DNA of 64,000 nucleotides. Origin: Escherichia phage vB_EcoM-UFV13. Shown here in pieces: positions 16,426 to 64,000 of this stretch (position 1 is its first letter; every line of letters starts with the position of its first letter). The notes under the pieces are model-generated. The model was given only the letters and a program-made list of their open reading frames with translations. It was not told the origin of the DNA and searched no databases. A program made the position numbers and the translations under genes. The DNA lies in sequence record NC_031103.1; one strand, 5' to 3'.

Positions 16426-16626
16426 ATGGTACAAAAATTAATGGCACTTGTTAATGCCATCAAAGGTAATAAAAAACGTATAGCTTTTACTATTTCTGCT
16501 ATGGTAGGAATTTTACTCTGGAACTTTATTTTATCACCTGTTGCAATTGCACATGGTATTAATATTCCAGTAGTTACTCTTGATACATTTGTAGATTTAG
16601 CATTTGCTTTAGTTGGGTTAATTTAA
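16426..16626 (+). CDS. small hydrophobic protein on the opposite strand
   Basis: 66 aa; AGGAGGA 3-4 nt before ATG; fills the 56-61 gap; no competing minus-strand ORF. Confidence 0.4.
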   Translation: MVQKLMALVNAIKGNKKRIAFTISAMVGILLWNFILSPVAIAHGINIPVVTLDTFVDLAFALVGLI

Positions 16627-17651
16627 ATCTTAGCATATTTAGATAGCCGCATTTTAGCCATTAACCCCTGCGCAATATTATTTTTCATATATTCCATAAT
16701 CTGTTCAGGGGTTGCACCTTCCTTTCTAATCATATCATTGACATCTTTTGATTTCCAGGGAGATTTATCCCAAAACATAACCCTTTCTCCTGCATCAACT
16801 AATTTAGTCATTCGCTTGATAGTGTCAGGGTGACGAGGTTCATTATCTAAGACCCACACTCGTCTATCTTTAAATGGAACAACTTCTAGGTCTAATTGAC
16901 CACCCGTAATAGCTATACCATTTTCAATAAAAAGCGAATCTATAGGTCCTTCTAGAACATATACATCACCATCTTTAACTCGTTCAACACCGTAAATTTT
17001 TGTTGCCTCAGGATAAGCTTTGATGGTGATATACTTTTGTGGAGCATCTTTCTTTAATGCACGTCCTTGAAAAGACTCAGCTTTTCCATTTGCATTATAA
17101 ATTGGAATAACAAGACGAGGCTCAGAAATTTCCTTTTTGTATGTTCCCGGTGCTATGCTATTAACTAATTTAGGCCATTCGGTTGTAAACCAAAGATATT
17201 TCCATTTATCCTTTGGAATACAACGAGCTTTTACATATTTTATAATTGGATGGTCTTCCGCCAGTTTATCTAATCTAACACATGACGGAAGAGATTTAAT
17301 TATTTTCTTCTCAGGTTGTTTAGGAAGTTCTTTAGGTTTTTCTACTGGACGACTTTTACCTTTTTCTTTTCTTATTTCAAAGATATACTCACGATATAAA
17401 TCAGGTTCAAACTCCTTTAAATATATTCCGATTGGTGCGTGATAGTTACAGTTATAACAATGAATATTTCCTTCATTATTATCACCATAATACCATCCAC
17501 GGGCTTTATTTTGGTCGGTTTTTGAATCTCCACAAACAGGACATCTAAACCGCAATTTAAAAGTTGAACTATTATTTACTTGTGTGAATTTAGGTAAATG
17601 AGCTAATGCACGATATGCAAACTCATTATCAATCCAAGGTATTGATGACAT
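16623..17651 (-). CDS. 61: DNA primase gp61
   Basis: 342 aa; N-terminal zinc ribbon CPVCGDSK...CYNC; matches T4 gp61. Confidence 0.9.
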   Translation of the reverse strand: MSSIPWIDNEFAYRALAHLPKFTQVNNSSTFKLRFRCPVCGDSKTDQNKARGWYYGDNNEGNIHCYNCNYHAPIGIYLKEFEPDLYREYIFEIRKEKGKSRPVEKPKELPKQPEKKIIKSLPSCVRLDKLAEDHPIIKYVKARCIPKDKWKYLWFTTEWPKLVNSIAPGTYKKEISEPRLVIPIYNANGKAESFQGRALKKDAPQKYITIKAYPEATKIYGVERVKDGDVYVLEGPIDSLFIENGIAITGGQLDLEVVPFKDRRVWVLDNEPRHPDTIKRMTKLVDAGERVMFWDKSPWKSKDVNDMIRKEGATPEQIMEYMKNNIAQGLMAKMRLSKYAKI

Positions 17652-17653
17652 TT

Positions 17654-17818
17654 TTACTCTTCTTTTTCTTTAGATTCCTCTTTTTTCTTTTTAGGAATCT
17701 GTTCAGGACCTTTATTTACTATAGCACCTGACGTTGTTCCAGTGGAGATATTTTCAGGATTACCACCTGAATCTCCAGCTACCATATCTTCTTTGATAAA
17801 TTCTTTATATGTTTTCAT
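17654..17818 (-). CDS. 54-aa protein with capsid-targeting-like N-terminus (T4 61.1 position)
   Basis: Hand-translated MKTYKEFIKEDMVAGDSGGNPENISTG...; not in track; TAATATG coupling. Confidence 0.45.
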   Translation of the reverse strand: MKTYKEFIKEDMVAGDSGGNPENISTGTTSGAIVNKGPEQIPKKKKEESKEKEE

Positions 17819-17819
17819 A

Positions 17820-18176
17820 TTAACCTCTATTCATAAAAGCATTAAAAATTTGGTCATCAATTGATGGAACAGCAACCTTTTCTACATCATTTAACAAATC
17901 ATTAATTTCATCAGATAGCATAACGCATGTACCTTTATTTCCTGTAATTGTTACTGCGCAATTACGAACGTTTTCTTTATCAAATTTTAGGTTAATATTT
18001 TCGTAGTGAAAATCCTTTAATGCCGAATATATTTTTAAAATGAAATTGTCTTTTACTACAATAAAACCGACTTCACTATTAAAACGCGGCTCATGAAAAC
18101 TGTAATAAACCTTTTCATCTATAAAATCGTATGAAATTTTTTCCATTTTTAAATATGAAAATTCAGAACTATACAT
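17820..18176 (-). CDS. hypothetical protein (T4 61.2 position)
   Basis: 118-aa ORF between 61.1-like and sp. Confidence 0.5.
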   Translation of the reverse strand: MYSSEFSYLKMEKISYDFIDEKVYYSFHEPRFNSEVGFIVVKDNFILKIYSALKDFHYENINLKFDKENVRNCAVTITGNKGTCVMLSDEINDLLNDVEKVAVPSIDDQIFNAFMNRG

Positions 18177-61708: not shown

Positions 61709-62284
61709 TTAGGAATTACGGGCTGCATTAGCAACGGCGTAAGCGTACTGAACATTAGCGTCTTTAAACGTACCTTTAGAGGTATCTATTTCTGCCTTAA
61801 AGCCGCCTTTAGTCATAACATCGGCAAATTCTTTACGGAAAGCCATTGCATCAAGACTTCTCCATGATGATTTGTGCTTGGCGAATTCAAGACCAGCGTA
61901 GTTGACAGCCTTAGCTAATTTATTATCAATAACCCATTTACCAGCTTTAGGCACAAACACCGGGCCTTTCTGTTTAGAGAATAGTTTTAAATTCCAGCGA
62001 CGAAGGTCACCGTCAGCTTTAACAAAAGCTGCGTCCAAATTACTAGCAACAACATCTTGAATATGGCCAAATTTAAGCCCATCAACTTCAATATTTAGAT
62101 CGGTACGCCAGCGAAGTCCTTCCCAAGCGAAAGCTTTAAAGTCAGAAGCTTTTGTAGCTAAGTATCGTTCAATAGGGGCTGTTTTAGGGTCAAAGCCGTT
62201 TCCTCGGTAAGTCCACTCATCTTTATTAATGCCTTTGGCCTTTTCCACAGAAGCTTCAGCGATAAATTCTTTATACGTTTTCAT
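61709..62284 (-). CDS. internal protein with capsid targeting sequence (IPIII-like)
   Basis: 191 aa; N-terminal MKTYKEFIAE. Confidence 0.7.
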   Translation of the reverse strand: MKTYKEFIAEASVEKAKGINKDEWTYRGNGFDPKTAPIERYLATKASDFKAFAWEGLRWRTDLNIEVDGLKFGHIQDVVASNLDAAFVKADGDLRRWNLKLFSKQKGPVFVPKAGKWVIDNKLAKAVNYAGLEFAKHKSSWRSLDAMAFRKEFADVMTKGGFKAEIDTSKGTFKDANVQYAYAVANAARNS

Positions 62285-62298
62285 GTGTTTCCTTTATT

Positions 62299-62613
62299 TT
62301 ATTCTTTAGGGAAGTTTTTAGAATATGCATCATAAAGCTTATTTCCAATACGGCGGAAAACTCTAGCCGCAAAACGATTTTCAGGGTTTTTAATCATGAT
62401 TTGCATCATGTAAGTTCCTGCATCCGAAAGAGCTTCTTCATAGTACCCATTAATTTCTTTAAGAGTCCTACGTTTACCACCAGGACCATCAACAGTAATT
62501 TTCCATTTACCTGTAGAAGTGCGGCTCGGTGGTTCAACTTGTTCAATCCAAATATAACCGCCTTCAACGCGTTGTCCGGCGGATTCTGCAATAAATTCTT
62601 TATATGTTTTCAT
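62299..62613 (-). CDS. internal protein with capsid targeting sequence (IPII-like)
   Basis: 104 aa; N-terminal MKTYKEFIAE; own early promoter. Confidence 0.7.
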   Translation of the reverse strand: MKTYKEFIAESAGQRVEGGYIWIEQVEPPSRTSTGKWKITVDGPGGKRRTLKEINGYYEEALSDAGTYMMQIMIKNPENRFAARVFRRIGNKLYDAYSKNFPKE

Positions 62614-62676: not shown

Positions 62677-62935
62677 TTAAGCTTTACCGCCAGAAATAAT
62701 TCCGAAGTTGTTAAAATCGTATCCAATATCGTCAACATCTACTTTAGTACTTGCTACAACATAAGCAATTTCACTACGTTTTGCATAGGTGTTGATTTCT
62801 TTACCATCGCCACCTAAGAAAGTACCCATTACGTTTTAATGAGCCAAAGTCTTCCGCATCACCAATGAAAGCTTTAACTTTAAATTTAGGACCTTTGGCA
62901 TCTGCTTCAACGATAAATTCTTGATACATTTTCAT
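62677..62935 (-). pseudogene. internal-protein-like gene with apparent +1 frameshift
   Basis: MKMYQEFIVE... terminates after 44 codons; reading continues in another frame to 62677; shift near C-run about 62825-62827. Confidence 0.45.
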
Positions 62936-62941
62936 TTTTCC

Positions 62942-63355
62942 TTAGTAAATTGATTTACCATAGTATTTGTACCAAGTCGGACGTTGAGCAATTTTTTCAT
63001 CTAAGCGTGCTTGACTTATCGCAATGGACGCTTCAGACGGGACGTAATTATTACGAAATTCTACAGGAATGTCGGAAATATCCTGGACTGTCGTGTCCTT
63101 GATTTTGAAACCACGTTTCAAACATTCAGCGATTAGCTCGATTTGACGTAAACGTAAAAATTCGAGTTTGTCGTAAAAGAATGTTACGTGACCTGTGCCT
63201 AAGATAAATGTTGGAGAGATTTTAAAATCCTTTACACGTTTACCGTTTTGAACATGTTTACGGACTGCACCAAATACGCGTGGTAATTCACGATACTCAG
63301 CCATAAGATGTTGGTCGGTCAGTTCAGAAACAAGTGTTAAATTGATACGAGTCAT
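62942..63355 (-). CDS. denV: endonuclease V (pyrimidine dimer DNA glycosylase)
   Basis: ATG at 63355 gives [12 protein letters not shown]...; matches T4 endo V. Confidence 0.9.
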
Positions 63356-63382
63356 AATTTCCTCCAAGTAGTTGATGAATGT

Positions 63383-63413: not shown

Positions 63414-64000
<587 letters not shown>

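Follow-up and report, generated by a model that had tools for sequence, protein, structure and literature searches.

The small gene next to the primase gene of Escherichia phage vB_EcoM-UFV13 encodes a protein, gp61.1, in which a leader of the capsid targeting sequence (CTS) type stands directly before a segment homologous to the capsid protein gp23. The original prediction, made from the DNA alone, had passed over this segment as Gly/Ser-rich. Judged from alignments, it copies the maturation junction of gp23, together with the N-fist that comes next. The glutamate that ends the leader falls on the gp23 residue after which the protease gp21 cuts, and this register, like the gene itself, is conserved throughout the 61.1 family. 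We propose, with about an even chance of being right, that gp61.1 enters the prohead core, where gp21 would cut it after Glu10 and a 44-residue peptide would be released. In what follows, the window is the whole stretch of DNA that was analysed, 64,000 nucleotides in length.

The 61.1 ORF and its PHROG have already been catalogued, and automated pipelines have picked up the similarity to gp23 in the form of 'major capsid' labels. We found no published interpretation of this similarity. New here is the joining of a CTS-type leader with an in-register gp21 site, a copy of the N-fist and a basic tail, which would place gp61.1 within the class of gp21-processed prohead passengers. Head assembly in T4 is among the best-studied assembly pathways. 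Nevertheless, the route by which the ten-residue CTS finds the scaffold is still unexplained (PMC9958956). gp61.1 links this tag to the propeptide tail of gp23 itself, and provides a candidate for a new processed head peptide that is open to direct testing. If the proposal is correct, the T4 head has an extra component or regulator, and there is a hint at where the targeting sequence came from. T4-based platforms for packaging and delivery would also gain a minimal cargo of natural origin, and the widespread mis-annotation of 61.1 ORFs as 'major capsid protein' would be corrected.

Gene 61.1 and its N-terminal leader

A 54-residue ORF had been predicted between gene 61 and the next gene upstream, and we confirmed the order 61, 61.1, 61.2 (Table 1). 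The Gly/Ser-rich middle and the Lys/Glu tail ascribed to its product (MKTYKEFIKEDMVAGDSGGNPENISTGTTSGAIVNKGPEQIPKKKKEESKEKEE) are present as stated. Since the frame opens just four codons 5' of the ATG, a longer N-terminus is impossible. Between 16.6 and 19.7 kb, the window is 97.4-97.5% identical to the Tequatrovirus genomes ime09, PP01 and Shigella phage vb_GEC_SH_GT, and close relatives (e.g. ime09) label the ORF gp61.1, 'hypothetical protein'. On the minus strand the genes run uvsX, 40, 41, dmd, 61.4, other small ORFs, sp, 61.2, 61.1, 61 and 56, with the head-assembly gene 40 in the same replication-gene cluster as 61.1. We also noticed a hydrophobic ORF of 66 residues (16426-16626, plus strand), which lies on the other strand in the region of genes 56 and 61, between the two, and has the look of a small membrane protein. 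This ORF is annotated in relatives (RB69ORF029w) and is called 'putative head morphogenesis protein' in a T2 record.

Table 1. Features of the 61.1 region and of the internal protein (IP) genes in the window.
Feature	Position	Strand	Basis
Gene 61.1 CDS, 54 codons and TAA stop	17654..17818	minus	ORF list; gp61.1 in ime09; phrog_1823 E=8.9e-34
Shine-Dalgarno GAGG, 5 nt 5' of the 61.1 ATG	17824..17827	minus	direct sequence reading
Stop codon TAA of 61.2	17820-17822	minus	direct sequence reading
61.1 codons 1-10, MKTYKEFIKE, CTS-like leader ending I-K-E	17789..17818	minus	IP-leader match 9/10; Glu10 on gp23 Glu65
61.1 codons 11-38, DMVAGDSGGNPENISTGTTSGAIVNKGP, conserved core homologous to gp23 66-93 (mature gp23 N-fist)	17705..17788	minus	
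61.1 codons 39-54, EQIPKKKKEESKEKEE, Lys-rich tail of variable sequence, strongly basic in other genera	17657..17704	minus	alignments, pI values
Gene 61, DNA primase, conserved downstream neighbour of 61.1	16623..17651	minus	start 2 nt past 61.1 stop
Gene 61.2-like ORF, 118 aa, upstream neighbour of 61.1	17820..18176	minus	
IPIII-like internal protein gene, leader MKTYKEFIAE	61709..62284	minus	phrog_5341 'internal virion protein' E=1.6e-116
104-aa ORF in IP cluster, leader MKTYKEFIAE	62299..62613	minus	phrog_3966 (no assigned function)
Split (frameshifted) IP-like gene, leader MKMYQEFIVE (ORF 62801..62935)	62677..62935	minus	phrog_2667 1-43 and 48-79
IP-like gene between e and denV	63414..63695	minus	phrog_3499 'internal head protein' E=1.2e-46

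The first ten residues of gp61.1 had been noted to resemble the leaders of internal proteins encoded 44 kb away. This was confirmed, as nine of the ten residues match the IP leader MKTYKEFIAE. When all ATG, GTG and TTG starts on both strands of the window were scored for likeness to the CTS, only the four IP starts and 61.1 reached at least 7/10; 61.1 scored 9/10 and the best background start 6/10. An unsupervised all-against-all comparison, carried out with the N-terminal decapeptides of the 215 ATG starts that have a Shine-Dalgarno-like site, gave a single cluster at 7/10 or above, consisting of the same five genes. With no background start at this level in the supervised or the unsupervised comparison, coincidence, which the original prediction had retained as its alternative, was rejected. 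At the nucleotide level, the first 24 nt of 61.1 are identical to two of the IP genes at 23 positions. Because the genome is AT-rich, this provides weak evidence of DNA-level exchange between 61.1 and the IP genes.

Amber-suppression work on the CTS of IPIII has assigned targeting mainly to residues 4 and 7, and processing to residues 8 and 10 (reviewed in PMC9026906). All four functional positions are represented in gp61.1 (Tyr4, Phe7, Ile8 and Glu10), and Ile8-Lys9-Glu10 corresponds to the gp21 processing motif (Leu/Ile-x-Glu) at positions 8-10. In IPIII, the E10D change abolishes processing and leaves targeting intact. The sole difference from the MKTYKEFIAE leaders is at position 9, which is itself variable among the IPs of the window. 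In T4, the 61.1 leader is MKTFKEFIKE, as deduced from guide-RNA sequences (PMC11879866). The CTS suffices to bring foreign proteins into heads (PMC9026906; PMC7697877).

The IP locus of the window was also inspected. Two overlapping ORFs at 62677-62935, one of 44 residues with the leader MKMYQEFIVE and the other of 50 residues, match consecutive parts of one internal-head-protein PHROG, and by sequence look like a frameshifted or split IP gene. An extra IP-like gene is present between e and denV (62942..63367), and denV is followed downstream by IPII-like and IPIII-like genes. This arrangement differs from the order e, ipIII, ipII, denV of T4. A broken gene e at the end of the window was considered and rejected; gene e runs off the window.

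Similarity to the gp23 maturation junction

BLASTP aligned residues 2-38 of gp61.1 with residues 57-93 of gp23 without gaps (41% identity, E=2e-8). A search of PDB sequences with gp61.1 returned only T4 gp23 chains, in the same register. An HMM was then made from 57 members of the 61.1 family and compared with 3,560 stop-to-stop ORFs from this window, the head region of ime09, a Krischvirus genome and an Aeromonas g23 fragment. After two 61.1 proteins, the next matches were gp23 from three genera (E=3e-16, 3e-14 and 4e-14), and besides 61.1 and gp23 nothing among the 3,560 ORFs scored better than E ~1. In the reverse search, gp23 1-110 matched 61.1 PHROGs at 3.4e-10 and 3.4e-8. When 24 members of a longer form of the family were aligned by hhalign with gp23 N-termini from eight genera, a probability of 97.5% was obtained (E=5.9e-12) over 47 columns, corresponding to gp23 55-102. 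In every alignment, Glu10 of gp61.1 was positioned on Glu65 of gp23, the known gp21 cleavage residue. Using a slash to mark the cleavage position, IKE/DMVAGDSGG of gp61.1 lies opposite LTE/AEIGGDHGY of gp23, with Ile8-Lys9-Glu10 in register with Leu63-Thr64-Glu65. The aligned residues 57-93 of gp23 span the propeptide tail, the gp21 cleavage site and the N-fist of the mature protein, and the identity between the 61.1 core and the gp23 N-fist is 40-70% across genera.

In addition to the cleavage Glu, the motifs GD-x-G, NIA-x-G-x-TSGA and GP are common to gp61.1 and gp23 (~55-102). On the other hand, gp61.1 is without the HK97-fold body of gp23 (A and P domains, E-loop) and without the first 54 residues of the propeptide, carries a Lys-rich tail where gp23 has its N-arm, and throughout the family has GDSGG in place of GDHGY. 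The possibility that gp61.1 is itself an HK97-fold major capsid protein was rejected in view of its 54 residues, the restriction of the homology to gp23 57-93, the absence of a Pfam hit and the predicted disorder of the chain. The database labels 'major capsid (domain-containing) protein' are over-calls of the short gp23 similarity of 61.1 ORFs. We also rejected GDSGG (residues 15-19) as a trypsin-like serine-protease signature, considering the length of 54 residues, the lack of a Pfam or NCBIfam match and the equivalent GDHGY in gp23. Pfam and NCBIfam scans gave no match for the short or the long form of gp61.1, and homology of the N-domain of the long form to the gp23 propeptide (1-54) was not detected. 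The AlphaFold2 model of gp61.1 was of low confidence (pLDDT 60) and disordered, with a helix at residues 4-11 only. This is to be expected, since the equivalent segment of gp23 is also disordered until docking. To see whether the 61.1 core co-varies with the gp23 of its own genus, or has undergone gene conversion with it, an exact permutation test was made with eight genera and gave no signal (14.75 versus 14.41 identities of 28, p=0.23).

In mature gp23, the N-fist is formed by the 25 residues after the gp21 site. The N-terminal region of gp23 is disordered within the unexpanded prohead, probably on the scaffold, and the mutations A66D, A94V and G97S, which affect head length, map to it. Once the head has expanded, the N-fist is found on the outer surface, where it contacts four subunits and is part of the Soc site (PMC9958956, PMC9546572). 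These properties, along with the same homology to gp23 57-93, would also suit a gp61.1 that is not packaged and acts in the cytoplasm as a competitor or regulator, a free copy of the gp23 junction that tunes head nucleation, length or expansion. Such a copy could bind gp21, the gp22 scaffold, or the site on neighbouring gp23 subunits at which the N-fist docks. Here the copied region is one that has been proposed to touch the scaffold, and 61.1 is expressed early, ahead of gp23. However, a competitor would not explain why about all members retain a hydrophobic-x-Glu sequence precisely in register with the gp23 cleavage site, or why the T-even leader retains the targeting residues. Knock-down in T4 was also without effect on fitness (see below), although the IPs are dispensable too. 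We regard a cytoplasmic role as rather unlikely.

The close mimicry of a capsid-protein segment brings up another role, that of an anti-defence decoy. An early mimic of the capsid N-terminus would occupy a host immune sensor directed at the major capsid protein. Capsid proteins are sensed by several abortive-infection systems of bacteria, and 61.1 is both early and dispensable in laboratory hosts. Nevertheless, we found no evidence tying any sensor to gp23 57-93, and the Gol segment of gp23 presumably begins about where the similarity to 61.1 ends. Moreover, very broad syntenic conservation is atypical of anti-defence genes, and the conserved cleavage motif would be left unexplained. A decoy is, in our judgement, highly improbable.

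The 61.1 family and the origin of the leader

gp61.1 matched two PHROGs, phrog_1823 (short form) over residues 1-54 (E=8.9e-34) and phrog_2086 (long form) over residues 8-53 (E=2.9e-16). A tblastn search with the 61.1 core identified 1,437 phage records across Straboviridae, a total that includes some gp23-only matches such as the 1,590-bp Aeromonas g23 record H83, in which gp23 itself was matched. The family is present in more than 1,000 Straboviridae records, adjoining the primase gene, and one record assigns 61.1 to a gene cluster confined to non-cyanophage T4-like phages. A profile search of 1.84 billion representative proteins gave 50 clusters with the 61.1 family. The original prediction had made its proposal dependent on conservation of the ORF in related phages, and we found it conserved far past close relatives. 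This distribution bears on whether the resemblances are due to chance or the ORF is non-functional. In favour of chance, the motif is a short one, and identical codons are likely where codon usage is AT-rich. Against this stand the absence of background starts at 7/10 or above, the 1,437 records (some being gp23-only matches), the 50 clusters and the highly significant homology to gp23, and we assign chance a negligible probability.

In Tequatrovirus, Jiaodavirus, Roskildevirus, Lazarusvirus and Schizotequatrovirus, the primase gene directly follows 61.1, and in Ishigurovirus 61.1 is flanked immediately by 41 and 61. This conserved site, together with the basic tail observed in most genera, could be taken to indicate that gp61.1 is a primosome or replication accessory, with a Lys-rich tail that binds DNA and a likeness to gp23 that is an evolutionary relic. 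But a relic would not hold 40-70% identity to the N-fist across long-diverged genera, nor would it keep the cleavage motif. The gene order of this module is conserved in general and includes head-assembly gene 40 as well. In addition, no fusion of gp61.1 to a helicase or primase was found; the label 'primase-helicase subunit' in ZPAH1 applies to a separate 149-aa ORF. A replication role therefore seems improbable to us.

The family displays two architectures. The short form, 50-70 aa in length, occurs in Tequatrovirus, Jiaodavirus (MKTYKEFVTE/MVAGD), Krischvirus (MIGFKQFVEENKLKE/DMTAGD) and Biquartavirus. The long form (~155 aa) possesses a conserved N-domain of ~105 residues, predicted to be helical, and is found in Mosigvirus, Roskildevirus, Lazarusvirus, Slopekvirus-like phages, Schizotequatrovirus, RB43 and Aeromonas phage 65. 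This N-domain was present in 618 records, with no T4-type record among the matches listed, and the 61.2-like ORF (118 aa) of the window is unrelated to it. We examined the leaders of 60 diverse members. The residue equivalent to P1 of gp23 was Glu in about all of them, and P3 was hydrophobic in 93-94% of both forms, whereas the rest of the leader, ranging from 3 to 141 residues, was freely variable. The full targeting pattern (aromatic P7, hydrophobic P4) was observed in 30% of the short and 3% of the long forms.

The peptide predicted to be released is typically 36-61 residues long with a Lys/Arg-rich tail, and has a pI of 8.3-10.3 in other genera. The predicted mature peptide of the T4 type, represented in this window, is the exception in the family with a pI of 5.0. 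In T6-type homologues, a gp61.1 variant of 62 aa has a different tail (KKKKRNLKKKKSKNVINTLD), and the sequences are consistent with a one-base slip in the lysine-encoding A-run. The tail appears to be free to vary in sequence so long as it is Lys-rich.

Several relatives from metagenomes had unusual sequences. In two copies (P0012 and P0028), every Pro, Ser, Thr and Ala was replaced by Phe, Leu, Ile and Val (MKIFKEFIKEDMVVGDLGGNFENIF...), a pattern as expected from C-to-T converted reads assembled as native, for example from bisulfite-type libraries with a T4 DNA spike. Three others carry a second leader-like motif past the core and basic tail, (N/D)FKQFVE-x-LE in P0026 and P0045 and GFKAFMEG in P0052, after which comes a conserved C-terminal domain of ~95 residues without a PHROG match. 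These are either polyprotein-like fusions or the result of read-through into a neighbour gene with a CTS-type leader. The long-form model also matched, with 35% identity, the first ~130 residues of two larger viral proteins (BFVD A0A411BBR2, 672 aa, and A0A1B1IT15, 913 aa).

Concerning the origin of the leader, MKTYKEF-IKE/ of gp61.1 was aligned with the pre-cleavage segments KEIFKEL-PLFE/ and TELYKEF-PMLSE/ of long forms, with AQAFGSF-LTE/ of gp23 and with the IP leaders. The pattern aromatic-x-x-Phe/Leu-hydrophobic-x-Glu is common to the propeptide tail of gp23 (59-65), the 61.1 family and the CTS. As the leader aligns with the pre-cleavage segment of the long form and the propeptide tail of gp23, it was probably inherited within the 61.1 family and not taken from an IP gene. 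Most simply, we infer, the T-even leader is the product of an N-terminal truncation of the long form; capture from an ip gene would be a less likely source. In the near-complete Krischvirus genome (Skers) used for a comparison of leader co-variation, an IP-like cluster of common N-termini was absent. A uvsW.1-like ORF of Skers (31236) begins with MISFKRFLVE, matching the leader of Skers gp61.1 (MIGFKQFVEE) at 6 of 10 positions. No further start of this kind is present in Skers, and the match may be due to chance.

Proposed processing in the prohead

In the course of events that we propose, gp61.1 would be made from the early 41-to-61 transcription unit. The amphipathic leader (Tyr4, Phe7), the gp23-like segment, or both would bind the gp22 scaffolding core, as modelled on the IP targeting sequence and the N-terminal region of gp23. 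Once the prohead is complete, the gp21 protease would cut after Ile8-Lys9-Glu10 and free a 44-residue, 4.6-kDa peptide (DMVAGD...GP-KKKK...). The first 28 residues of this peptide would mimic the N-fist of gp23*, and its Lys-rich tail could contact DNA. The peptide predicted for the cut form is DMVAGDSGGNPENISTGTTSGA(I/V)VNK, and those predicted for the uncut form are EDMVAGD...K or EFIKEDMVAGD...K.

gp21 acts inside proheads, and this favours the entry of gp61.1. Both entry and cutting are further favoured by the sufficiency of the CTS for bringing foreign proteins into heads, and by the fact that the cleavage motif is the sole leader feature kept family-wide. The possibility of a packaged passenger also gains from the location of the gp23 N-terminal region, the source of the copied segment, inside the unexpanded prohead, from the polyprotein-like relatives with a second FKQFVE-x-LE motif and a further domain, and from the presence of head-assembly gene 40 in the same cluster.

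gp61.1 resembles IPI, IPII and IPIII of T4 in its ten-residue MKTY(Q/K)EFI-x-E leader, with the four functional positions and the gp21-motif end. It is also small, of the early RNA class and dispensable in laboratory hosts, as are the IPs. Unlike the IPs, which are poorly conserved and encoded at variable loci (near e/denV, or the ipI locus), 61.1 is fixed beside the primase gene and retained by most T4-like genera other than those of cyanophages. As its mature part, gp61.1 has a copy of a gp23 segment instead of a folded effector, and the mature peptide predicted for the T4 type is acidic to neutral, whereas the IPs are basic. Internal peptides II and VII of T4 are acid-soluble head peptides cut by gp21 from core proteins, and gp61.1 is similarly predicted to yield a small gp21-generated head peptide. 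In contrast to gp61.1, internal peptides II and VII derive from scaffold/core proteins of the head-gene cluster. Among giant phages, the head proteins gp50, gp53 and gp54 of SPN3US have propeptides of >100 residues (PMC5694885). The long form of gp61.1 may be processed likewise, as its leader of ~108 residues, with a helical prediction, ends at a hydrophobic-x-Glu site; in the long-form phage RB69, the predicted cut would be at L-F-E/D. Long-form gp61.1 was not found to be related to these giant-phage head proteins in sequence or fold.

Once released, the N-fist-like peptide could be a DNA-associated counter-ion or tether, a filler of sites that are without an N-fist, or a discarded scaffold-binding handle. 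A bolder version, which we hold to be distinctly unlikely, is that the peptide is a free 'N-fist', an unrecognised structural component of the head with a Lys-rich tail that tethers DNA, and, as a corollary, that the CTS is a descendant or copy of a gp23-type propeptide tail. A free N-fist would dock where the N-terminal segment of gp23 is missing or has moved away, and candidate sites are those around the gp24 vertices, at the portal, and on the inner wall where gp23 arms vacate their sites on expansion. Descent of the CTS from a gp23-type propeptide tail would account for the ability of a tag of ten residues to find the scaffold.

Several of our results weaken the packaged reading. The gene is fixed beside the primase gene, outside the variable IP loci. 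The T4-type mature peptide (pI 5.0) is not basic as in the IPs, although that of other genera is (pI 8.3-10.3), and the full targeting pattern is seen in 30% of short and 3% of long forms. Co-variation between the 61.1 core and gp23 of the same genus is lacking (p=0.23), the Krischvirus genome has no IP-like leader cluster for a comparison of co-variation, and gp61.1 alone is predicted to be disordered (pLDDT 60). The packaged reading is also weakened by the absence of a head-protein report for gp61.1 and of a protein class in the T4 time course. We found neither a report of gp61.1 among T4 head or virion proteins nor a functional statement on it in the literature, and a mass-spectrometry study of the T4 virion, which described 13 sites in 9 processed head proteins, does not have gp61.1 among them.

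The 61.1 RNA of T4 is classed as early, as are those of ipI, ipII and ipIII, and 61.1 is without a protein class in the time-resolved T4 proteome (PMC9697503 supplement). Taking into account that the 61.1 and ip RNAs belong to the same early class, the timing does not speak against a packaged passenger. CRISPRi-ART knock-down of 61.1 in T4 led to no fitness defect (score -0.84, p=0.93; PMC11879866), which fits an accessory role without discriminating between the readings. The late promoter TATAAATA was absent upstream of 61.1 and of the ip genes of the window; as the ip genes are without one too, its absence from 61.1 does not discriminate either. In the whole window, this octamer occurred 3 times, compared to 10.5 expected from shuffles, and its scarcity fits an early-gene region that avoids the motif.
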